DNA of 63,130 nucleotides, filler included, from Blastocystis sp. subtype 4 (Eukaryota), in NCBI RefSeq assembly GCF_000743755.1. It is 16 parts of 16 records of this genome, joined end to end, with 100 filler letters (N's around TTAATTAATTAA, not from the genome) between each part and the next. Parts side by side here need not be neighbours in the genome. Positions count along the whole stretch, not along the records: positions 51,093 to 54,391 come from NW_014568969.1; 15 more parts are not named here. One strand, given 5' to 3'. The notes under the pieces were generated by a model. That model saw only the letters and a program-made list of their open reading frames with translations, did no database searches and was not told the origin of the DNA. Below, one piece after another: positions 2 through 54,391 of the stretch (its first letter is position 1; each line of letters opens with the position of its first letter). The position numbers and the translations under genes were made by a program.

Positions 2-511
2 ATTGGTTCAGGTAAGTTCAGTGATTGGATGTCAAATGCATGGAACAAACTGAAAACGATCTATAACAGTGAACAATTCAAACCAATCAAGAATGCACTC
101 GTTACTGCTGCTTCAAACACTGCTCAGAAGTACATTGACAAAGGAGTTGATACACTTGCAAGTAAGACAAATAATGAAGATTTGAAGAATGTAATCAACA
201 CTACTCGAGATGTTGCTAGTAATCTGAAGAATGAAGCGATTGATCAAGTGAATGGTAGAGGAAGTGTATTTGGAGGTGGATTGCATGTAATAAGAAGTAA
301 TATCGATGATGAGGTAGATGATTATGATATGATGAGTGTTGGTGTGAAAGTATATGATGATAGTGTTACAAATGATCCAGTAGAAGAAACAGAGAATAAG
401 GGAAAGGCATACATAATTGACTCCAATTATGGTATTGTTGACACACTACTAACAACCCATCTTACATGTTTCTATCCAGTTATTATTCTGTACAAATTAG
501 TGACAAAGTAA
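2..511 (+). mobile_element. Putative endogenous virus virion-protein fragment (amphipathic helix flanked by Gly motifs), 5' truncated
   Basis: Intronless frame open from nt 2: IGSG-KFSDWMSNAWNKLKTIY...NGRGSVFGGGLHV. A Gly motif, then a Trp/Phe-rich amphipathic helix, then a VxGG-type motif, resembles protease-processed proteins of adenovirus/Polinton-like viruses. Motif-level inference only. Confidence 0.4.
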
Positions 512-1257: not shown

Positions 1258-3488
1258 ACTAAATTATCGAACAACAGTCTCGATTGTGTAGAATATATCG
1301 ATAAAGAGAATCGGCATTATCTCAATAATTAGCAATTAATAAATCATACTCATACTACGGCATATTTCAACATTCTTGAATGAATCAACACCTAACTTAA
1401 TTCCCTCTGAAGTAAGTGATGGAATGTCTAAATCAAATACATTATTCAATTATCACTGTTTAATATCACTTTACCAATACGAATGAAATTGAAGTCATCT
1501 CCTTTGATTAGAGATAGAGAAGGGAGATCTCATCAATCAATCATCACTATCATTCATACTCTTCATTATCAGTGTATTGGATTTCACGGTACTAATATCG
1601 CCATTAAATGCTCCCCATCCAAGAGTGATAGATTGGAGTTGAGGTAAATCTCATTCATCATTCTTTCAACCATTCATACTCTCAAGCACTATTCTACGAC
1701 ATTCATAGAATGCTTCATGACCTACTATTAGAGAATTAAGGAAAGAGAGATTGGAGAGATAGAACGATTTGCTTGCTCTTCCCACATTTGCTTGAATAAC
1801 AAGACATTTAACTGAACGAGGTATCTCTTGATTGACTGTTGAAACCCATATTGCTGATGGATTAAGAGATATCAAATGTTCAGTCGGAGTTACATGACTA
1901 TTCAATGTTACAACATATTCAAGAGAGTCAGCATCTTAATCATTAACAATCAATCAATCATACTTGAACAGATCATTTCTCTCACATTACGAAATGCTTC
2001 TGACCCGATCTGAATTCTATCTTTAGAGAGTGATGGAATATCTAGTTCATATTCAATCATCAATCACCACTATCCAAAACCACTCTGCCTATAAAATAGA
2101 ATCTGAAATATCCTTTGAATATAGATAGAGAAGGAAGATCTCATCAATCAATTATCATCATTCATACTCTTCATTATCAATTCATTTGATTCAATAGTAT
2201 TATCATCACCATCAAAAGCAATGGATTGAAGTCGAAACAGATCTCATTCATCATTCATTCAATCATTCATACTCTCAAATACTATCGAATGAATCTCCAT
2301 AAATGCACCACTATCAAATTGAATGGATATCAGAGAAGGAAGATTCTTCAATTCAAATGATTCATATAACTCGAATGATTTCTCTCCAATATGGATTTCC
2401 CTCAATTGATCACAATTCATTATCACCCATTTGCTTCCTCCTCTCTTCATATAATGCAGTTTGAAGCAGTTCTTTCTGATGATAATAGTCTCCAATTCAT
2501 TCAATCCATCAATCACAAATTGAGTCACTGTCTTGTAATTTCCATTTCCAATTTCCACTCTCTTAATTCCTTTCAAATTGTCAGTATTGAATTCACTCAA
2601 TTCATTTCTATATCCATCTTCTAGTCGCTTGGTGGTGTTATTGTCACATTTTTTCTCTTTCTTTAGTGGATAAACACTCATCTGCCTTATGATTCGATCA
2701 AGAGAGTCAGCATCTTAATCATTAACAATCAATCAATCATACTTGAACAGATCAATTTTTGAACATCACGGAATGCATATCTCATATCAATACATGTATA
2801 AGTGAGTGATGGAATGTCTAGTTCATATTCAATCATCAATCACCACTATCCAATTTCACTTTGCCTACATACCTGAAATTCTGACCATCTCCTTTGAATT
2901 TAGATAGAGAAGGAAGATCTCATCAATCAATTATCATCATTCATACTCTTCATTATCAATTCATTTGATTCAATAGTATTATCATCACCATCAAAAGCAT
3001 GGATTGAAGTCGAAACAGATCTCATTCATCATTCATTCAATCATTCATACTCTTAAATACCGCTGAATGAAACTCCCAGAATACCATACGATCCAACTGA
3101 ATGGATATCAGAGAAGGGAGATTCTTCAATTCAAATGATTCATAACACTGGAATGAATAATCTCCAAAGCAGATTATTATCAGATGATCACAATTCATTA
3201 TCAAACATTTGCTTCCTTCCCTACTGATATTACCAGAATTGAAGCTGTTCTGCCCAATGATAACCCTTTTCAATTCATTCAATCCATCTACCACAAATCG
3301 AGTCACATTCGCAAAACAATCATCTCCAATTTCAATTTGTTTCAATGATATCAATGAATAGTTCAGTATCAATGATGATATATCAGGTCGATTGAAATGA
3401 TCAGCAATAATCAGAGATTCAATACAACTAGTAACAATCAATTCACAATCATCAATCCATTTCATTCTCATATCATCATTAACATCAA
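1258..3488 (-). CDS. Multi-exon leucine-rich-repeat protein (three tandem LRR modules), 5' truncated; possible frameshift near 3000
   Basis: Repeated units such as FELKNLPSLISIQ, DLPSLS and DIPSL, separated by 28-30-nt GT-AG introns (e.g. 2243-2272, 2140-2167). After splicing the modules are linked in frame by DADSL linkers at ~2710 and ~1930. Confidence 0.75.
1921..3060. repeat. Internal direct repeat with ~780-nt period in the LRR gene
   Basis: 1921-1975 is identical to 2701-2755, and ~2130-2280 is near-identical to ~2910-3060 including intron sequence. Confidence 0.9.
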
Positions 3489-3588: not shown

Positions 3589-6500
3589 ACTCTTCAGTTG
3601 TTCACGAAACTGCTTGAGAATGAAGAGGAGTTGTTGACAGTGCGTGAAGTGGTGTTGTTGCTCTCTGGATCACGAGATGTTCATATGGCTCAGGAGAGTG
3701 TGTTGTATGAAGGATTGGTGTCAGCACACTGGAGATTCATTTATGCTGTCTGTAAGCGTTATGTGAGACAAGAATGAGAGAATGATGAATAGTATGGATG
3801 TGAAGCCAATACTCCTGATCTCGTGAAGCTGAAGGAGACTGTTGAGTTAATGATTATTGGAGGTGTGACTGTTGTGAATCCTGAGATTCGTAAGCTCTTC
3901 CGACCTCTGTTCCTCCATCTAATGCCTAATTCTCTCTCTGATCAATTGTTGCGTCTCTTCACAGAAGTAGGAATGATGTCTGGAGTGAAGTGTAGTCCAA
4001 ATCATGTTTCTACAAGCGACAATGGCTCCCATTACTTGTGGAAGTGTTGCTACGTTCACTGGATCCTCATAGTTCATTCCAGTTAGCACCTGAGATGTCT
4101 CGCTTTCCTCCAATTCGTGTTGAGGCTGTAGGTGAAGGTAAGACAGAAGATTGTGTTCAGAGTGTGTTGGCAATGGAGCGAAGTGCGATGCAGATGGAAG
4201 TGGGGAGTATATTGGAGGATCTGATTGAACTTGCTTATGGAGATATGCGAATGGCTTATAAGCAGGAATGAGGAGATGAGATGATTTGTAGATTGTGGGT
4301 GGAGTTGTTCCCTGTGGCTTGGAGTTCATTCACAGTAGAAGAACAGAAAGTGTTGACGTCAGGGTTGAATAAGCTGTTGGCTTCAGATATCCATGGAATT
4401 CAACAGAATGTGTCTACTCATGCTCTCTGGGAAGAGCTTGATAAGGATTACAAACAATGGGGTTCATCGACTTCTCATCCTTTTGGTTCTCAAGCCAATT
4501 CTTGTTATGGTACTATTCCTGTGACTAATGGTCTTCAGGCAGTTCTTGAAGCTGTGTTACGTTGTTCACCTCAACCTCGTCTGCCTCCCACTCTGCTTCT
4601 ACATCTGACAAAGACATATGGTTGTGGTCCTCAGGCTTCTCTGCTTCTGGAGATGGGATTACGTGAGGCAACAGATACGGATGAGAAGAGAGCATATAGA
4701 CAGTGTTTGAAGGCTGTATTTGTGAGTATGTGATGAGTATGTGATGATTAGATTGAGATGCAGGAGTATGATGCTCTGGCTGCGATGTTGAATGAAACTC
4801 CCATTTCAGAGTTACGAAATGGAATGACTCTGGAGCGTTTTGGTAAACCTCAAGCTGCTGAGATGGCCTATTTGGAAGGACTGAGGAACCAAAGTGTGGT
4901 AGGAAGTCTGGATGCTCTAGAGATTCTGGAAGAGCGATGGAAGGAATGCGCGTATAATCTGAAGAAGTGGAAACTCCTATTTGAATATGGAAAGATGAAT
5001 CATGATATTTGGCTACTTCTTGACTGTTATGGGAAGTGTAATATTTGGGAGTATTTGTGTCATTGAAATGTAATGAATAGTCAATATCCGAAACTTCTGA
5101 CAAATAACCCTATTCAAACAGAACGAGATCTCTCAACTTTACGTTATGCCGTAATCGCAGAGCGACTCTGGATTCTACGCTCGATACGAGAGCCAGCCCT
5201 TGCTCATCAGTCTCGGCTACGTGAGTTGATTCTTGCTGCCTATCGAACCCTTCCAGTTCAGCCAATCAATCACTATGATAGTATCCTCCATCTGGCCAAT
5301 CAGCTAAATGAACTGGCTGTCTCAGCTCAGTTTGTTCAGTGGCGTCTTTCTTCCAAAGAAACAGACATCAGTGTGGTAATTAAAACCTTCAGTGACTGTC
5401 TGATGAATCCTTGGGATCCCCTCTCTCTATGGGAAGACATTCTGATCTGGAGGGCAAATCTGTGTACAGAGGTTATGAAACAAGGAATGCGTGAAATCAC
5501 GTCTCCTTCTCTCACAGCAACCTATCCTACTCTTCTCATTGCTCGTGGTGCTCGCTTGCAAGGTCTACCTGAAGTAGCATTGGAGTATCTCATTCCACTC
5601 TTCAGCGATACTTCCAACACTTATGGAGAATTTGACAAGTGGAAAGAACAAGCGCAGATCAGTCTGGATATGAATCAGCATGATCCAATTATCTTCACAG
5701 AGCTTGATAAATTGAAAGTAGAATCGTTAAAAGATGTCCAGAAAGCGGCTTGTCAGTATATTCGTGGTTTGTATGCAGTGAAGGAGCATCAATATGAGGA
5801 AGCAGCAGCCTACTTCAACAATAGTGTTCAGACAAATCCAAAGTATTATAAAGTGTGGGAAGCATGGAGTAATCTGGTTTATAATCAGTGGGAACAGAAA
5901 GGAGATCTACGAGATGCTCAACAATTCTTGAACTGCTGTTTCCAGTTACTTGCAATCAAACCCGATGGAACGAAGGTCATTCCTCGATTCCTTGTCGTTC
6001 TCTTTGCCACACTCGACAATACTCCGATTGCAACAACAACCACGAACTACATTCAAAGGATTCTTCCTTCAGTGTGGCTTCCATTCCTTCCATTCCTTCT
6101 CTCATTCCCAACTGAGGCTCAATTCGCCATCTTTCAACCAGTCTTCAAGCCATTAGTCCTTAAGTATCCGCAAGTCATGTTTTATCCTCTTCATACTCTT
6201 TGTCTGAACCTTGGAATGCCATGTAATTCTCTCTATGCCAAACCTACAGGGTTCTATGAAGGTACCATCGGTAGTACTCTGGGAACCAGTGACACTACTG
6301 CACGGCCTGATACTAAGATCGTTTCACTCAGTACTGTCGTAGCACGACTCAACTCTCTTTTGTTCCTCCCTTCTCATATTCCATCTCAGCTCCTTCTCTT
6401 CTTGGATACATTGCATGCTACTCCTCATGATCCTTATCGAGAGCTCATAGCGTCAATTGATCAGATTCTTCGTTTCGCTTATTCTGAAGTCGCTGCTGGA

Positions 6501-7022
6501 GGATTACAAACCTTATCCAATCCTGTGAGTGTTGATCTCCAGAGACGATTAGCAACACTATGTTCTCTCTCCTTCAATCTGGATTCTGCTCTTCCATCCA
6601 CATTTGCGTTCCTCTCTCAGTATGCATCTGCCTTCAATCAGGATTTCAATCCATCTCTCTCTGAGGATAGCTCTCAAGTCAATCCTTCCTTCCCACACTC
6701 ACTCAATGAGCTACTTCAACGATTACTCTTATGGAAAGATCTTGCTCTTCATGAGATGCAGAGTCTACGCAGTCAAATTTCATTTTCTTTCAACTGGGCT
6801 GGTACACACTTCCTTCCCTATAGTGTCGAAGTCCCTGGTCTCCATATCATTCCTGTCGACCGTCACGTTTTTACCCTACAGCACATTCACAGTTACCAGC
6901 CTAGTTTATATGTTGAATGTCACGGTTGTCGTCATGTGGAGATGATAGATGAGCAAGGTCATTCATTCCGTTTCTATTTGGAGCAGGTGAATAGTGTTGA
7001 TAGTATAATTGAGGAGCGTACT
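3589..7022 (+). CDS. TRRAP: TRRAP/Tra1-like PIKK-family protein (FAT region), partial at both ends, multi-exon
   Basis: AYKLWVELFPVAW, PRLPPTLLLHLTKTYG, EERWKECAYNLKKW, WEDILIWR, VWLPFLPFLL and YPQVMFYPL match the Tra1/TRRAP FAT region. Short introns at 3967-3995 and 4262-4291. Confidence 0.8.
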
Positions 7023-7122
7023 NNNNNNNNNNNNNNNNNNNNNNNNNNNNNNNNNNNNNNNNNNNNTTAATTAATTAANNNNNNNNNNNNNNNNNNNNNN
7101 NNNNNNNNNNNNNNNNNNNNNN

Positions 7123-10100
7123 TCTTCGACTAGTTCTGTTTTCCATAGTACTGCTGAGGGTTCTTGGGATGAAACATTGTGTTTGCCTCTTGGTCAATAC
7201 ACGATTGTGATGACAAGTTCTAGTTCTGCTTGGGCTCCTTCTTCTTCTTTGTCTGTGTATTCTCTGATTGGTCTTAGTGATTCTGTACTGATTGCAAATG
7301 TTCATTTGGATCCTGCTGGAGGTGCTGAATCTTCTGTTCCTCTTTCTCTGTTGTTCCCAATTGAAGTTGGATCGAATTGGAAGTATAATGATCTTGGTGT
7401 GGATTGGAAGGAGAATGATGGTGAATCATGGTCTGAATCAACAGGTGGACGTGGACAATTCCCTATTACAAGTCGTATTCAGACTTATAAGAAGATGATT
7501 TCATTGAGTGAATCTTTGGCAAATGAAGGAATGGAACTATCTGTTCGTTATCAACATGGATGTGTTGTGTTAGTGAATGGAGAAGAAGTGTTCCGTGATG
7601 GAGTGAATGGAGTGATTAGTTCTTCTTCTATTCCTTCTCATAGCTATGATTCTGTGATGCCTCATGTGATTACTCTTTCTGGTTCTGTTTTCATGAGTGG
7701 AACGAATGTGATTACAATTGTGTTAGTGAACACAGCTGAAGGTGAATCGACATTCAATGGAGTAATGCGAGTTGTGGGAAATGGAGAGAGTCGATTATTG
7801 GATCATAGTGTGACAACAAGTGGAATGAGTGTTGAAGGAGATTTGACAAGTGGTCGATCAGGTATAAGAGTGAGTGGTAATTGTGAATCTAATGAGATTG
7901 TAATCAGTTTTAGTAATCATTTTGAGAGTATTCAGAAGATTGAATTGTTTTATGATTCAAATGAGTACTCATATCCTTCATCTCTTCAAATTGAAGGTCG
8001 TCGAACATCAAATGATTCATGGAACACTTTGATGAGTGTAGGATGGATGAATCGTGAAGTTGATGTGAACATGGGTGAGATTGTGATTGGTTCTCCTTCT
8101 CCTTATGGAATGTATCGGTTATCAAATCTATCTTCAGATGAATGTGAATGGATTTTAACTGGATTGAATCTGAAGATGAGTTCTCTTCCTACAAGTGTGA
8201 CTCCATTATCATATCCTCCTCTCTCGACTTCTCAATTCCTTGATGTGAGTGTTTCTCCTGTAACTGCAATTGGTTATACTGAGTTTGCATTGAATGGAAA
8301 TGTTCCTAATGGATTGAAGATTGATAGTGTGAGTGGAGTGATCTCAGGAGTGATTCGAGTGAGTGGTTCTATTAGTATTGGAGTGAGTGCTATTCGTATC
8401 ACAGATGGAGAGAGAGTGTTTACAGTATGTGAAATGAATGTGAGTGTGTGTAACGGATCGGTGATTGGAGTAACAGTAATGAGTGATGTTGATGTGAATG
8501 TGAGTATAATGAGAGGAGAAGAAGAGATTGTGAGTTACAATGATTTGAGAGCTGTGACTCATCATGTATGTGTTAGTTATGATACGTACAGATTGAGAAT
8601 TGTTAGTGTGAATGGTATTCCTTCTCCTCTATCAAGTATGTATGCAATCACAATGATGGAAGAAGAATTGGATTTGAGTCGTGGTGTGATAAGCAGTAAC
8701 GATATGAGTGTTGAATTCTGTTCATTGGATCCTATTGCATCAAATGTGAATGGTTGGAAGATGAGTGAAAGTGTGAGTGAGGGTTGGATGAATGAATCAT
8801 TTGATGATGCTTCATGGAGTGTGTTGAATGATGATGTGATTCCAAAGACTACGACAAGTTATCTTCGTCGAGTATTGAGTGTGAGTGATGTGAATACTTA
8901 TCCTGTACTGAACTTACGAATGCGATATAATGGAGGAGTGATTGTGTATTTGAATGGATTGAAAGTGGGTCGTTTCAATCTCCCTTCATCTGTGAATCAT
9001 TCAACCAGTCCTTTATCAAATGAAGAAGTTGAATCGAATTTCCATATTCTGTTGTCAAGCACAGGTCATTCTGGTGACAATGTATTGTGTATTGAGTTCC
9101 ATCATGGTTCTGCGAGTTCATCTGTTTTATCATTGAATGGAGGATTGAGCATGGGAGAAGTAGCTGTTGTGAGTGATAGTTGGAATGATGATGGAAGTGT
9201 GGCTAATTTGGAAGGAAGTTTGTTCAATGTGGTGATGATTGTTCCTTCAAATTCTGGTAGTTTGGAGTATTCCTTGACTGCTAATGTGAATGATCTGAGT
9301 GGTGTGATTGGTTCTGTGAATGAATCTGTGAATGGTCCTATATCGATGGATGTTGTGATGATTCCTGGAGCTACATTCACTAGTAGCTCATCGATTCCTT
9401 TATCGATGACTATCTATGGATTCAATCGAAATGTGATTTCAAGTGGAATGTGGTTAGATGAGTCTGGTAATACTGTGATATCTGGTTTGAGTCGTTTATC
9501 GAGTGGTTCTCATGAATTGCATCAAGATGTGATATTGTCTGCTCTGATTGAAGTGGATATATCTTGTGATAATTGTGAAGTGAGTGTGAGCATAAACAAT
9601 CATTTGATTGAATCATTTGGTTCAAATGCTGTGAAGAAGGTATTTGTAAGTACGATGTTGGATCACTATGTGAGTGGATTGAATACGATCAGTGTGTCAA
9701 TCTCTTCTGTTGCTGATGAATCTGTATTCTCTGGAAGTATTCGTTATGTTGCTTCTCATACTCGTTTGATGGATGGAAGTGCTACGATCACTCCAAATCC
9801 TTTGGGTCCTGTTAGTTATTTGACTGATAATGATGTGAGTACTACTGTAGTGGTTCGTAACACTTGTGTTGGAACTGTGATTGAATGGAGTTATGCTGAT
9901 GGTGTGAAGGTTCCTGTGAATGAATATTGGATGACGAATGGTAATACTTGCAACATCTATGCTCCTTCTGGTTGGAAAGTATATGGAAAGGAAGGAAATG
10001 ACTGGATAATGCTTCAAGAGATTGAAGAAACAGCCTTTACTGCTTATACTCAAACGAAGACATTCAATTTCCCCAATACTGTTGGTTATTCTAGTTTGAA

Positions 10101-16650: not shown

Positions 16651-17107
16651 GTTGAAACAATGTACACTGAAGTTAACCTGGTAACTGGACATGAAATCAC
16701 CAAAAGAGAGCGTCAATGCATATTAGACCTTTAAAATATGTGGATTATTTAATGCTTCTCAACTAGTCTCCTTTCATATGTTCTGGGTTACATTTAGTCC
16801 ATGACAACTCTTAGGATTCGATGTGCTCATGAAAACAGTTTGAAAGGAAGAGAACAAGTGGATTTATCAAATGGATTGAACTGTATTCGAATCTACAGTA
16901 ATCTGGTAAAGCAGATGATATCATTTGAAACAAGTCCATTAGTGGATTGTATGATCTATTCAATGTTCGTTTAGTCATTTGAACATGCCAGGAGTTCATA
17001 TGAGTGATTTGCGTTCGGTTCAGTTTGATGTGTATGATTGCGATGGTGAAGTAGTATCAATTGCTTCTGATATCTACATCTGTTTGAGCTGTAATGCAAT
17101 CGATTAA
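16651..17107 (+). pseudogene. Decayed penton/minor-capsid-like viral gene remnant
   Basis: Reading through stops and a frameshift gives PGNWT..., LLSYVLGY, VDLSNGLNCIRIYSNLVKQ and SVQFDVYDCDGEVVSIASDIYICLS*. This is the motif order typical of single-jelly-roll pentons of Polinton-like elements. It is absent from the ORF track. Confidence 0.55.
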
Positions 17108-21203: not shown

Positions 21204-21263
21204 TCAACATACAATTCTTATTATCATTCAATACACTCTCTTTCAAGTACTCTTTCCACTTCA
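21204..21263. repeat. 60-nt segment shared with 51125-51184; both lie near contig starts (multicopy gene-family sequence)
   Basis: TCAACATACAATTCTTATTATCATTCAATACACTCTCTTTCAAGTACTCTTTCCACTTCA is present in both places. The minus strand reads KWKEYLKESVLNDNKNCML. Confidence 0.85.
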
Positions 21264-22357
21264 TTCTCCATTCTACTCCATTCATCTTCTTTGATATCGA
21301 TTCAACATTATCTACACTCATATTCTTATTATCAATCATTCATCAATCAAGAAATCAACATGATCTATCTGTTCAACATTACCTGTTACTAATTCACGGG
21401 AATCAATTCAATTCATTGCCCTCAATATACTTCTTCTCCTTCAATCATTCTCTTCAAGATGGTATCAAATATGTCGATTGTCATTATCATCATACAGCTT
21501 CTATAAATGGTCCATCCTCATATGTGTCTCGATTTGTCAATGGATTCAATACTCTCTTTCCTTCAAATATTCTTCTTTGCTCCATGAATCCGTTTTGAGA
21601 TCATATTTGTGCTCTTTTGATTAAATTCTATAGTATGTCACTGACTTATACTCCATACCATGACTCTTGGGACTGAGACTTGATATGTGGAATATCATAT
21701 TCCTTTATTAATCCAAAGTGGAATCAAATCTTGAAATCAGTTCAAAACTGGCATACATCAAACAGGGATATTCGTTCATTCTCATCTGTCTCAATTCAAA
21801 CGCTCATACTTCCAAACATGTTCTTAAGCACACTTCCTGTTAAGTCAAATCTACCCTACCATCCTTCATATACATTGCACATTCATTATTTCATTCTTAT
21901 TCTTATTATAGAACTTGGTTGAATCTGTAATGAAAGCAGTGATTGTATCATCCTTAATCATTCTGACAACCATCTGTATCACTCAAGAATTGAACAACAG
22001 TCTGGTCTTGTTTGTTACTAGGTTTATACTTGATTTACTTTTTCACTTTGGAAGGATTGATTGATATTGTTGGATCACCTGATAATCCTACTGAAACACT
22101 GATGATTTGAGATATGCTTATCATTATGAATGATTCTCTTGTTATTGACTTCAATCAGATCATTTTGAATGTGTATGGAAAAAGATGAAAGAATAATCAT
22201 TTAGTAATAGTGAACAAAACGAAACACGTATTATATTCAGATTGATTTGAAGATATCATCACAGTCGTTGTTAATAATACCCAACAAATTGGCTCAAAAT
22301 GGTAAAGTGAGTCTTCTATTTTGATAACTGTTTTCGAAAGTGACCCCGCATAGCCAT

Positions 22358-38799: not shown

Positions 38800-40808
38800 T
38801 GATTTGGAATCGTTTACAGAGATGAGATCTTTGATCACACCGTTATTTCTTGTTGTTCATTATGATTGGTTTCACAAATACAGAATGATACAATCATTCA
38901 CAAGGTTCAGTATTCTCATTACGACAAGAGGAACATAAGTGTTCAATCTATCATCCATTTCCCAGTTCCAAGTGAAAGACATTCACTTCCGTATCATTAC
39001 TCATATCATAGTATCTCAGATTGTTAACATTCGTAGTAGAAAACACTGTATCATATGATACTGACACTTACATAGCACGAATACTCACTCCAGTCTCAGA
39101 TCGATTACAAGTATCTCTCAATGCGCTATCGAATCCATCATTGAATTCGTTGTAAACATTACTGTTGACGTTCATTTGTGTCAGTTTAGGGTATTTGGCA
39201 TCTTCACATACCAACATCTTCTGAATGATAAGAATACAGTTAGAACCTCTTTTGAACACTCCATAGGAAAGAATGGATCATCCCATTCATATGTCACATT
39301 TTTCACTTTACCATTATGTCGAACAAGAATATATGCATTTCGTTCATATCTTCCAACGTATATGTAATCATTCGTGTATTCTCTGTATCGCTTATTAACA
39401 ACATTGATAATACCATCACCAATCTCTTTGACAGTATGTTTTCCTGCTTTGATTGTATGTTCAATATCAACAGTATCACCGCTAATTCTAGCTCTTATAT
39501 GAACATCATTTCCTATCCATACCTCATTTCCATAATCACATTTACTAGATATCCATCGATTAAATACTCCTCCTCGCTTATCACTATTCGTTGTTACTAA
39601 TACCTCATCATCATCTTTGTAATCAGCATTCATACTAAACTCCAAATCTGGAGCATATTCATTTGCATTCCAAACATAACTCCATCCAGATGCATTTGTT
39701 GTCCAAGCAATCGCTTCGATATCAGAACTTGTTAATCCTTTAACACTCTGATATTCACCATTCAATTCATTCATACATTCATTTGCTAATGATGATATTG
39801 AGTAGTTTCCTGTATCAAGATTAATNGTACCACTTGATAGAATACTACCATCATTATTACTCATTCTATACGTAATTCGAGGTTTTACCAAATATCGATA
39901 ATCAGATGTAGTCAACTTCCAGTCATATTCCAAATAAGAATCTTCAAGAAATGCATATCCATTTGTACCATCCATTGATTCATCTGGTCTTTCAATACAC
40001 AAGATTCTTAACACCACTCAATTTGAACCAAGATGTCCAACCACAATCAATTGTAGTATTAACAGATTCACGATCAAACCACCATTCTTCAGCAGTATTC
40101 ATTGTATTGATACCAACATATTCATCTTTATATGTTAATCCTCCCACATCTACCACTTACAAAACTCATTGAATGTGTAATATCCAATAGCTACTTTCAA
40201 GATATGTTCATCATTACCATTTGTTAATACAATCTGATTACAACTTGTAGATACATAGTACTTCTTAATCACATCCATTCCTTTCTCAATATAATCATTT
40301 TCAAATCCAAATATCTCTTTCAACAAATGTGCATTTGAGCATTTGAGAAATCAAGTGTATAGAAGTAATTAGCAGCTATTCTGAAAGCATTCTCACCACT
40401 ATAGATTAATTCAAACATAGCATCACTACAATTCAACATTGCTATCAATTCTTCAATCTCATATGATCCTTTTGGAATTGTGATTATTGAATGATCTGTT
40501 CTATTTCCATCAATTACTACAATTTGTTCTTCTGTTACATTGTATAACTCGAAATCTGTATATAATGAGATTGAAGAGATGAAACACTTCTTAAATGATA
40601 ATGGATTATCTAGTTTCACTTCTGTTTTAGACCTATTACATACTTGAGACAATGAGAATTGTGAATATGATTCATATCCATCCATGCTTTCATTGATATC
40701 CAGAACATTATCTATTGTCAATTGAAGTTCAAAATCAGCATTCAAATTCATTAGATTACCATCCAAATCTTTGAATGAGAAGTAGATACGATCAAATCGA
40801 TTGATGAT
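38800..40808 (-). mobile_element. Decayed viral gene with tandem penton/minor-capsid-like domains plus a long extension
   Basis: DRIYFSFKDLDGNLMNLNADFELQLTI (penton C-terminal motif) is followed by LDNPLSF...ISSISLY...YNV...ITIPKGSYEIEELIAMLN...LLKEIFGF (penton N-terminal motifs). Intronless, with several frameshifts. Confidence 0.6.
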
Positions 40809-50708: not shown

Positions 50709-51599
50709 AATCCTATTGATTGTTTGTTGATATCAGTCTAATTATCAACATTTGAATATAAGAAATACCTGATCTCATACAAGAATTGTTTCAGTTCACC
50801 TTATTTCGATTCTTCAGTAATTCACGCTATTCAAATACAAATTCAATCTCAGTTACATCATACTGTGTTCAAAGAAAAAGAATGGAAGAATGAAAGATGA
50901 GTCATATGATTAGAAGATCAAAACGGGGAAATGGTTAACTGAATAGTGTGACTACTTTGATTATCAATATCACTGAGCATACAAGAGTTTCANNNNNNNN
51001 NNNNNNNNNNNNNNNNNNNNNNNNNNNNNNNNNNNNTTAATTAATTAANNNNNNNNNNNNNNNNNNNNNNNNNNNNNNNNNNNNNNNNNNNNTCCTCTCA
51101 TTTCTCCTTTATCAACATTCAAATTCAACATACAATTCTTATTATCATTCAATACACTCTCTTTCAAGTACTCTTTCCACTTCAGTCTCCAATCTACTTC
51201 ATTCACCTCCAATGATAATCATTCTTTATTACTTACTTTTGTTCTCTTATTATCACTCATTCCCTCATACCTTTGTGTCATTATCATTAACCTGGTGCTA
51301 CGTACTCCAACCACGGGAATCATCGCTATTCTCATATTTCAGTCCATTCCATATATTCGCTGTCTCAATTAATAGCAATGGGAATTCTTTCTTCAAATCA
51401 CTTAAATAGAGAAAGAATCGAATGATTGTTTTAGACTCGATCTTAATCTATTTTAATGAATCTATTCAACATTAAATCATACTTTCTGGTATCTATGTCT
51501 TCTATCTCCATCAATACATCGACAATCAATAAATTATACACAATCCTTTATTATCAACTCACACTGTACAAACTACTGGACGTGCATTCTTTCAGATGT

Positions 51600-53200
51600 A
51601 TAAGATATGAATAATGGCTACAAATAATCAGTTAATTCGATTACAATTCACAAGCCTTATGATAGCAACATGAATAGAATGCTGGATCTCTACTCCACTT
51701 CTGCATCAACCATTAAGCCTTTGAATACTTAGAGGAACATTCATCAAATTGTAGAATACTCCTTTTCTCTCATAAGTCTCCCATTCAAGTGGTATTCCCT
51801 GTGTTGAATTGCCAAAGAAGAACACAAGTCGTCTTATTCGTCACAGTACCTTTCAGACCATATTTGTGATTCACAACCTCACTATCAGTCACTAATTCCT
51901 TTATCTTATTCACAGTATCAATTGATCTGTCATGACATTCATTCACCATTACAACACACTTAGCTGCATCTTCACTGAAATGCTAACAAGTCCTTCAATT
52001 GTTGTTTTGGCTGTTTCACTAGGATCATACCACCTTGAAATGATGTCAAACAACACATCTTTTCCAAATCCTTGAATAGATACAATACAAGGATACCACT
52101 CAATATGAGTTCCTGCTTTTACAGCAAGAATACCAATGATGTTCTTCAATGGTTGAATCCACTTCAAACACTGTTCTTGTGAATATGGACTATCAGGATC
52201 CAATGCTACTTTTCCTAATCCGAATGTGTTCACAAACTCTTCATAATCCTTTCCAATCTCTTCTTTGTACTCTCCATTCATGATATCAGGTCGAATATCC
52301 AAGAAGAGATTGTAGTACTTATCACCACTTGGTTCAGTATATAACCACTTCCTTGGTTTGGTGATATCATCTTTTCTAGAAGCGAATTGAATGATCTTGA
52401 ACAGATACTCACAACTAGCATGAGCCAGTATTCCCTTGAATTCCTGTGGTGAGTAGATGTTCAGTTTCTTGTCAATTGATGTTCTCATTACAATCTTGGC
52501 AACATCAATATCATAGACACAATATCGATTCAGATATTCAATCTGTCTATCAGTTCGATCTCCTTGTTTGAGCTCTGTAAAACATTGATTCAGAAGTACT
52601 CATCAGGAAATTCTATCTCCTCTTTGATAGTATTTCTTGATAACACAGTCAACCCCTCTTGATAATTTCGGTTTGTCAAGGTAGTCTATGATCTTATTGT
52701 GACTGGCTTGCAATAGGTGTTATAGTTAATGACGAAGTCAGGTGGTTGAACACTCTTATCATCGTTTCTAACCATGTTTGATAATTACTACCAAAACCGA
52801 TCATTCAGAACAGCTGCTTAGCGAGATCACGTGATACATGACAACTGTCCTTCACTTCCTTGAGATGTTGATCTCTGTTCATAATGTATTCACCAAGGAA
52901 TAGTCCTTTCGTGATAGCACACATGAAGTTGGGATAAACTTTCACGATAACCAGTTCAATGTATCGTTCAGAGAATAATGCAGCTTGAATCTCTCTCATG
53001 AAGTGATAAGCATCATAGACAACTAACCCATCACCGTCAGCATACCTACGATACAATCCGAACCTATCGACATTTCCTGATTTGTACACTATCTTGACAG
53101 TACCATTAAAACCACTTTCAAGATACTTGAAGTAAGCTTGAGGATTGAAGTTGATACATCATCTAAAAGTGTTATTACGACATAAACTATATAACCTGAT
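51600..53200 (-). mobile_element. Decayed PolA-like (TVpol) domain fused to a superfamily 3 (D5-like) helicase; Polinton-like/virophage-type replication gene
   Basis: N-terminal part: GTVKIVY...GLYRRYA...MREIQAALF..RYIELVIVKVYPNFM...YIMNRDQHL...VSRDLAKQLF*MIGFG. C-terminal part: Walker A SIQGFGKD, Walker B CVVMVNE, then KIKELVTD...NHKYG and motif C VFFFGN, read across frameshifts. No introns. Confidence 0.75.
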
Positions 53201-53514
53201 AGAAATTACTTGCATAAAAAGAAGAATTCATTTTGCTGACCGTGTATGAACAGTTATCATAATCTATAGAATTGGATCAATAAGTTGTATTACACACTTT
53301 AGATCGTATTATATTGAAAATCAAGATTATAACGGTGTATGAATGGTTATCTTGAAACAGTAGCTAAATCTCATCTGTTCTATTTGAATTATTCTTAGAT
53401 AGACTTGTAAACTCTCTACGTATACACAGGGTGATTTTGTGTATCAAAATGGAGGGGTTATTCACAACTGGTGACAACAACTCTTTTCTGAACAAACAGA
53501 ATTGGTGGAATCCA

Positions 53515-54391
53515 TTAATAACCACTGAAGGCCTTAGGATTAGCGTTGCAAATGTTAGCAAACACCTTGAAGTACTTAAGAGCGTAGTCACTGTAGCCCA
53601 TAGTTGAGGTGAACTGCTCAATAGCACTCTTGTAGCAGTTCACATTCTTCACACCACTTACATCCTGATACATTCTAGGCTCTGTGGTGAGGGAGGCAAA
53701 GTACTTGTCAATAGCCTTTCTGTTAGCAACTTCCTCCTCATAAGCAGCTCTCCATTTCTTCTGTTCCTTTCCAGTAGTATGGTCAGCCATGAAGAGACGG
53801 AACAACATCTCGTTATCACGAGAATCCCAAGTCTCAAAGGACATCTGATGTTCAACAGCAGTCTTCTTGGGATAACCAATGTACTCTCCAATAACATCAT
53901 TCATGAAGGACTGATCACCATAAATGCTAACATGACTCTTAGTCACTCCACTAACAAGGCGATGGAACTGCTCATCAAGAGTTTCGGTCTCTTCCTCACC
54001 CTTATCAGCATCCTCCATCCAGTACACAGAGAACTCATCTCCCAAACAGGTACCCAGCATCTTACCCTTGACAACAGACTCCGAACCACAATACCAACCC
54101 CAGCTCGACTCCTTATCATTGGCAGCAGTAATGGCAACAACATTCAGATCCTCAGGAAGGTTCAAGAACATGGATCCAGAGTAGCAAGCCTCAATATAGA
54201 GAACAAACTTCTTGTACATCTTCTTATCGTGCATTGTCTGAATAGCATTCAGAAGATCCTTGCTATGGAGATAGCCACCAGGCATGGCAAGAATATCTGC
54301 ACCACCATGATCCGAGAAGAACAGGAACACATTATCCTCTTCAGTCGACTTGAGAACCTTCTTTCCAGTGCTTTCATCTCCAGTCAAAACC
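53515..54391 (-). CDS. Legumain (asparaginyl endopeptidase, C13), 5' truncated
   Basis: Catalytic dyad motifs FLFFSDHGG and YIEACYSGSMF, plus ESSWGWYC and TCLGDEFSVYWMED. Confidence 0.93.

Follow-up and report, generated by a model that had tools for sequence, protein, structure and literature searches.

A decayed TVpol (PolA-like)-SF3 helicase gene fragment beside a legumain gene in Blastocystis sp. subtype 4, a likely remnant of an integrated Polinton-like virus

The window analyzed here, meaning the whole 63,130-nucleotide stretch of Blastocystis sp. subtype 4 DNA, is composed of 16 small contigs with spacers between them, and the viral fragment described below is confined to the contig at 51093-54391 (3,299 bp). 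It is made up of a legumain gene's 3' part, a 360-bp spacer, the viral fragment, and a 550-bp flank ending in a host repeat. No capsid, ATPase, integrase, terminal repeat or other viral gene was found on these 3.3 kb. The features of the contig, all on the minus strand, are as follows.

51642..53155 (-): decayed TVpol (PolA)-SF3 helicase gene fragment, identified by tblastn and by its position in a tree; blastn matches to the metagenome loci L001, L005 and L006 stop at 51642.
52772..53155 (-): N-terminal PolA piece, aa 42-169, with motif A; TGA at 52805-52807, and Val in place of the motif A Asp at 52949-52951.
52615..52619 (-): junction of a 425-nt deletion with loss of polymerase motif C; the 5-nt repeat GAGAT stands at both reference breakpoints.
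51949..52599 (-): longest surviving ORF, 216 aa from stop to stop, with the linker and helicase start; Walker A at 52057-52080, out of frame before Walker B.
51785..51982 (-): Walker B piece (Walker B at 51938-51958); DUF5906 (NrS-1-like helicase) E 0.0014, under the cut-off.
51647..51825 (-): SF3 motif C piece (motif C at 51808-51825); Lys at the arginine finger position (51763-51765), frameshift near 51730.
51448..51482 (-): 35-nt GT-AG intron within the 3' flank; an RNA-like contig that includes the last part of the viral fragment has it spliced out.
53491..53498 (-): TGTTTGTT motif, a Blastocystis-type 3' signal, immediately following the polyadenylation site of legumain, which a loose T-run marks at 53502.
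53515..54391 (-): legumain gene, 3' part, a host flank outside the element (Peptidase_C13 E 4e-60; Legum_prodom).

Six-frame translation placed the peptides quoted in the initial annotation on the minus strand, as had been stated, and set the exact extent of the region, given there as 51600..53200, at 51642-53155. The peptides GLYRRYA...MREIQAALF...YIELVIVKVYPNF...VSRDLAKQLF*MIGFG share one frame, SIQGFGKD lies at 52057-52080, CVVMVNE follows in another frame at 51938-51958, and VFFFGN lies at 51808-51825. Three stop-to-stop ORFs of at least 60 aa carry the fragment, rather than the two pieces originally reported. When P0001, the best intact homologue (808 aa, 78% identical to the window copy), was used as a tblastn query, its residues 42-169, 175-188, 191-222 and ~358-694 mapped onto 53155-51647 with E values of 5e-62 (aa 42-222), 1e-113 and 3e-33, far beyond chance, and with 77% identity over aa 42-169. 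The fragment corresponds roughly to residues 42-694 of this 808-aa relative minus residues ~223-357; residues 1-41 and 695-808 of the intact protein are absent as well.

Compared with the metagenome locus L001, which is a broken copy too, the window copy carries the TGA, five 1-nt net frameshifts, a 3-nt deletion and the 425-nt deletion, the last of these being an addition to the TGA and frameshifts that had already been correctly recognized. The frameshift near 51730 is common to both copies. The 425-nt deletion is bridged without difference by a DNA contig (run X1, 52543-53517) and by an RNA-like contig (run X3, 51894-53156). In the protein alignment, the window copy reads Val at the motif A Asp, a gap at the motif C Asp and Lys at the arginine finger, and no open frame of this copy contains the catalytic Asp residues of motifs A and C together. 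The ratio pN/pS against L001 is 0.28 in the 5' part and 0.38 in the 3' part, values expected if the two copies descended from different working variants and then decayed; they fit a gene that once coded and later broke down. As a member of the TVpol-SF3 replicase family, the window copy is a pseudogene: no polymerase can be made from it, and its helicase is divided over different frames.

Two other readings of these lesions were considered and rejected. Chance GT-AG pairs lie near six of the eight breaks of the window copy; however, the frameshifts are not unannotated introns, as the RNA-like contig runs unspliced through 51894-53156. The original description of the region as intronless holds wherever the RNA-like contigs have no gaps (51894-53156 and 51642-51826), and the 35-nt intron lies in the flank only. 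The metagenome locus L005 was likewise dismissed as proof of a recent deletion, since it is fully identical to the window only distally and ~95% identical proximally; with identity this uneven, L005 may be a mosaic of copies.

The identity of the decayed gene was established on its intact relatives. A search with the 216-aa ORF among longer proteins yielded four matches of 806-817 aa from 769 candidates, 48-78% identical, and a search with P0001 yielded 12 proteins of 776-817 aa from 5,659 candidates; altogether the intact homologues span 776-817 aa and are 45-78% identical. An AlphaFold2 model of P0001, built from 12 aligned relatives, had a mean pLDDT of 74.8 and a pTM of 0.46. Residues 1-334 of this model aligned to Pol theta (Z 13.8, rmsd 4.3, 285 aligned), Klenow (Z 12.2) and T7 polymerase (Z 12.1), placing a family-A polymerase fold N-terminally, as in members of the TVpol-SF3 family. 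Residues ~450-785 aligned to the NrS-1 helicase (Z 19.8, rmsd 10.1, 280 aligned) and also to ASFV PrimPol, SaPI5 and poxvirus D5 helicases. The best named viral matches of the model were the replicases of Qinghai Lake virophage (E 3.5e-25) and Zamilon (E 2.6e-19). Profiles also recovered the helicase of P0001 (DUF5906 E 1e-10; NrS-1 E 6e-9), and Walker A, Walker B and motif C, the marks of an SF3 helicase, are present in the window itself. Pfam gave no DNA_pol_A match for either the window pieces or the intact relatives, so the PolA call is based on folds and motifs, and a single-sequence PDB search with P0001 returned noise only. The profile and fold comparison proposed in the initial annotation gave PolA plus a D5/NrS-1-like helicase on the P0001 model, the window pieces themselves giving only the weak DUF5906 match at the Pfam level.

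Motif conservation points in the same direction. The motif A Asp, motif C Asp and Walker A/B are kept in every full-length family member among the matches listed (67 of 67). The two Asp residues and the arginine finger vary in none of the 12 family sequences compared and in none of the 28 distant ones. When 1.84 billion representatives were searched with a profile, 2,848 matched at E 0.001, and the best full-length sequence outside the family scored 147 bits versus 1,392 inside. In a FastTree phylogeny of 42 sequences (14 family members plus 28 distant sequences, taken as the first with a suitable length in a list of 150), the gut replicases form one long-branch clade with support of 1.0, and the window copy groups beside L001 and P0001. 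On the intact relatives, a PolA-like plus SF3 architecture is thus confirmed at the level of modeled folds and, likewise, of conserved motifs, and the initial reading of the gene as a PolA-like TVpol domain fused to an SF3 helicase was borne out. No match was found in IMG/VR in any of six scans (P0001, alignment A1, P0018, the pPolB-like ORF, the integrase and penton alignment A2), in GTDB genomes, in a phage search or, for the replicase, in NCBIfam.

Four sequencing runs were compared with the contig at 51093-54391, among them a DNA run (X1), a run from another study (X6) and an RNA-like run (X3). A 975-nt contig of X1 (52543-53517) covers, with 0 differences, the deletion and the 5' junction as well as the legumain stop, and a 606-nt contig of the same run spans the 3' junction. 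A contig of X6 (52845-53209) passes into host DNA at the 5' junction, with 54 letters beyond the fragment, and L005 matches the 3' flank at full identity for 390 nt. Host DNA is therefore joined to the viral sequence in independent data (X1, X6, X3 and L005), as in an endogenous viral element, and the recurrence of both junctions in other sequencing runs argues that the contig is no chimera. The TGTTTGTT motif, a Blastocystis polyadenylation motif, occurs once per 2,943 bp in the window, compared with a density of one per 2,751-3,097 given in the text of PMC5608401, and the GC content of the window, 38.7%, is close to the 39.4-39.5% given for ST4 strains in the text of PMC10690189. Blastocystis is strongly indicated as the host of the fragment. 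When X1 was compared with L001, two additional variants appeared where the window copy has its deletion, along with several indels, meaning that the X1 strain holds other broken copies. X1 has no cover over L001 1-79 and 554-632, which would fit the lack of an intact copy in that strain, although contig holes prove nothing; no intact replicase copy was seen inside host DNA.

The host flanks gave some observations of their own. A legumain variant with 16-17 differences over 53488-54391 is present in runs X1 and X6, and loose ends of X3 over the same interval point to further legumain paralogues, and hence to a legumain gene family. A high-copy host repeat, 84% identical between its two occurrences and of very high depth, is shared by 51093-51250 and 21204-21341.

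Evidence for transcription comes from run X3, whose RNA nature is a software guess; it was taken as RNA on account of the T-run and the splice. Its contigs are unspliced over 51894-53156, and another, over 51155-51826, skips the intron at 51448-51482 (-), the length of which falls in the range of ~30-38 nt given for Blastocystis introns in the text of PMC5608401. Together with the spliced GT-AG intron, these contigs make it likely that sense RNA runs through the fragment into the flank. This spliced RNA from the viral fragment enters the host repeat at 51093-51250. X3 has no cover over the deleted stretch or at 53183-53402, where a hole would fit a separate transcript start, although here too contig holes prove nothing. 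The longest ATG-started ORF in the fragment RNA encodes 179 aa, lies after at least three shorter ATG ORFs and is without Walker B. The RNA runs X10 and X14, with 0 and 1 contigs on L001, give no support for transcription, and absence is not implied. Transcription of the fragment is likely leaky and weak, with no working enzyme made.

A metagenome scan confirmed seven loci of 102 pattern matches. Six of these are close to the window copy, short, and mostly frameshifted where covered. One of the six, L007, has at 1-268 a 265-nt piece that matches the window helicase at 92% identity; the piece lies at one end of a bacterial-looking contig of 57% GC, and this join is probably a mis-join. The remaining locus, L002, holds an intact gene, 56% identical to P0001, that lies 245 bp from the contig end and is followed by densely packed intronless ORFs. 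Its annotation covers 12,672 of 17,137 bases and one contig end only, and the tree places it in a sister sub-clade rather than in the window's own.

The neighbors of the L002 replicase are of viral type. An rve integrase was recognized by Pfam (E 6e-8, above the cut-off) and a KilA-N domain fell below the cut-off (E 9e-4). A 568-aa ORF at 6924-8630 (+) has DNA_pol_B_2 as its nearest Atlas clusters (0.88, the Atlas line being 0.9), with no Pfam or PDB sequence match, the single-sequence PDB search giving noise; we treat its pPolB-like character as a lead only. By eye, we take this ORF to carry PolB-type motifs, with one Asp in the motif C region where two are usual, and the single Asp suggests that it may be reduced or inactive. 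Another L002 ORF presumably has an adenain-like His/Asp/Gln/Cys order. The model of a 228-aa ORF aligned to PBCV-1 capsid chains (Z 10.3 and 9.3) and, over 122 residues, to the penton of mavirus (Z 8.4, rmsd 3.5); its two best matches were proteins of "MELD virus sp." (E 6e-16 and 9e-9), one of them named penton. With Z of 8-10 in these model comparisons, there is moderate support for a putative minor capsid (penton) gene, in the relative L002 only. No double jelly-roll major capsid protein or packaging ATPase was recognized in the 12.7 kb covered; the inspection of flanking genes that the initial annotation had called for yielded a penton-like gene and an rve integrase and neither of these other two.

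The replicase, pPolB-like protein, integrase, penton-like protein and three other proteins of L002, or their exact cluster-mates, each have a longest contig of 27,958 bp, and many other family members among those listed are on contigs of 26-32 kb, which suggests a unit genome near 28 kb. Clusters of intact gut-metagenome replicases contain up to 130 members. For a Polinton/Maverick sensu stricto, the rve integrase is present in L002, and the only candidate for the second hallmark, pPolB, is the pPolB-like ORF with its Atlas value just under the line. Polinton-like viruses have linear genomes of 14-40 kb with terminal inverted repeats; the contigs of 26-32 kb may derive from genomes of this type, and there are no terminal repeats at the window remnant. 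Viral context is confirmed for this one relative of the seven loci, and its pPolB-like and rve neighbors argue for a Polinton-like/MELD virus rather than a Sputnik-type virophage. Of the initial suggestion of a virophage or Polinton-like element, the Polinton-like half is the more likely.

Further observations on L002 concern its gene ends and a conserved ORF. A T-rich plus YACTTTG motif lies 13-29 nt past the stop on the coding strand in 8 of 15 genes, with 18 matches versus 4.4 in base shuffles (e.g., 2691 +, 3271 -, 6572 -, 8645 +); it is a candidate virus-specific 3'-end signal, unlike the host TGTTTGTT. A 183-aa ORF at 5139-5690 (+), from a 160-member cluster, has no family match, and we take it to resemble an OB-fold single-strand binding protein.

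The window contains other traces of virus genes. On another contig, a host surface-protein-like ORF is followed at 16828-17086 (+) by what is left of the penton-like gene of this family, frameshifted and 74-83% identical to P0229. The closest penton-like cluster has 408 members, and one of these is an annotated protein from a 484,869-bp contig of Blastocystis sp. BT1. This remnant shows that virion genes entered this genome too. Separately, a long, intronless, broken stretch lies at 39181-40808 (-), with a weak likeness to the penton-like family at 40323-40808 (hhalign probability 39, E 3e-4; HMM E 0.011), and by its sequence it may be what remains of another, more distantly related virus, with penton-like domains in tandem. 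A 169-aa open frame at 2-511 (+), cut by the contig start, has no family match; we assume a resemblance to a Polinton core/pVI-type protein.

Taken together, the locus is a dead, internally deleted PolA (TVpol)-SF3 replicase fragment beside legumain and the likely remnant of a Polinton-like (MELD-type) virus that integrated into Blastocystis, an account that we hold as a whole to be very probable. The initial view of a decayed integrated virus is upheld by the host junctions in independent runs, with the viral gene present only as a 1.5-kb single-gene fragment. A ~28-kb Polinton-like virus with an rve integrase would have inserted into the Blastocystis genome and then eroded to single-gene fragments, with 425 nt presumably lost by microhomology-mediated repair. 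From what is known of the family, the intact protein would unwind and prime or copy the viral genome, and the window copy is likely transcribed weakly, into spliced RNA from which no working enzyme could come.

An alternative source would be a capsid-less mobile replicase, either a stand-alone TVpol module or a transpoviron-like element, that spread by itself rather than in a whole virus. The locus itself is compatible with this, as only the replicase gene is present without viral neighbors, the contigs of the P0001 cluster are gene-sized (2.5-3.1 kb), and PolA/AEP replicases may move alone according to the text of a 2026 preprint (10.64898/2026.10.13.758929). However, short contigs are expected for repeats in short-read assemblies, related replicases are found on many 22-32-kb contigs, the ragged ends within coding sequence fit erosion rather than a bounded module, and the penton-like remnant at 16828-17086 lies in the same window, if on another contig. 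We regard independent spread of the replicase as unlikely.

Integration of a whole virus also has to be weighed against readings that concern the fate or the reality of the fragment. In one, the host has co-opted it, such that the spliced RNA or the 179-aa ORF is functional, for example in antiviral silencing of a related virus. The recurrence of the locus in several studies (including L005), together with an X3 contig carrying the exact allele across the deletion and splicing of the downstream intron in viral-gene sense, would agree with such a role; yet the catalytic residues are lost, the 179-aa ORF is poorly placed and incomplete, and leaky transcription suffices to explain RNA seen in a single run, leaving co-option quite improbable, slightly more so than a mobile replicase. 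In the other, the contig is a chimera created during assembly, or a host gene to which viral DNA from a contaminant became attached, the condition under which the initial annotation would have been withdrawn. The assembly is fragmented, related free-looking viral contigs exist in gut samples, and X1, the best DNA source, might be the same strain as the window. Nevertheless, the 5' junction was found again in X6, from another study, and in X1, the 3' junction recurs in X1, X3 and L005, and a contaminant virus would not bear so many inactivating lesions. With the linkage to host DNA reproduced across these four sources, an artifact of this kind is extremely improbable, and a decayed, integrated viral replicase remains the preferred reading.

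Blastocystis is the commonest gut protist, and decayed Polinton-like pieces are common in protist genomes. The main lead is the intact two-polymerase gut lineage and not the fossil; the fragment serves as a host tag and probe, tying a tight clade of intact gut-metagenome replicases to Blastocystis. We consider it a serious possibility, if a somewhat less than even one, that ~28-kb Polinton-like viruses of Blastocystis still circulate in the human and animal gut, stably combining two replicases, TVpol-SF3 and a pPolB of short length, and also carrying an rve integrase along with a 3'-end signal of their own (T-rich plus YACTTTG), that they are distinct from the published MELD virus, and that they could explain some old reports of virus-like particles. 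Two questions become testable from sequences: whether there is an active DNA virus in Blastocystis, and whether one small genome holds two polymerases. In the text of a 2026 review, Blastocystis viruses are a neglected open question based on old microscopy (PMC12835684).

TVpol fusions, endogenous viral elements of protists and a Blastocystis MELD virus are all already published. The searched literature gave no description of TVpol in Blastocystis, with subscription papers and the figures and supplements of PMC8502044 and PMC10120064 beyond its scope, and the replicase family is not described in the consulted text of PMC12077102, PMC13215967, PMC10690189 or 10.1101/2024.03.23.586382. The genomes that Bellas et al. 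screened included Blastocystis (PMC10120064). The TVpol-SF3 architecture is described in the text of PMC3671162 for Sputnik, OLV and YSLV1, and the main text of the 2026 preprint (10.64898/2026.10.13.758929) calls such fusions particularly common in these viruses, presents genomes with two replicase classes as occasional cases and does not include Blastocystis.

Sputnik/Zamilon, the Organic Lake and Qinghai Lake virophages and the Polinton-like viruses share with the gut family the domain order, the length of ~800 aa and the catalytic motifs. In contrast, the gut family is only 12-18% identical to its top virophage structural matches and forms a single long-branch clade, the window copy is dead, and the rve and pPolB-like neighbors in L002 speak against a gene complement of the Sputnik kind. 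The MELD virus that Starrett et al. (2021) described from Blastocystis hominis has the host genus in common with the fragment and combines PolB, an integrase and divergent virion proteins (text of PMC8502044), a set resembling that of L002 with its pPolB-like ORF. That text names no PolA or TVpol, its figure and sequences being outside the comparison; the best MELD match of the L002 penton-like model is only 24% identical, with the host of the match not stated, and no named MELD protein is among the 50 matches listed for the P0001 replicase. Polintons/Mavericks and endogenous protist PLVs (PMC10120064) are integrated, multi-copy and decayed like the fragment family, and L002 likewise has an rve integrase, a pPolB-like ORF and a penton-like gene. 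Relative to Polintons/Mavericks, its pPolB-like ORF is short (568 aa), and it carries a full TVpol-SF3 replicase in addition.
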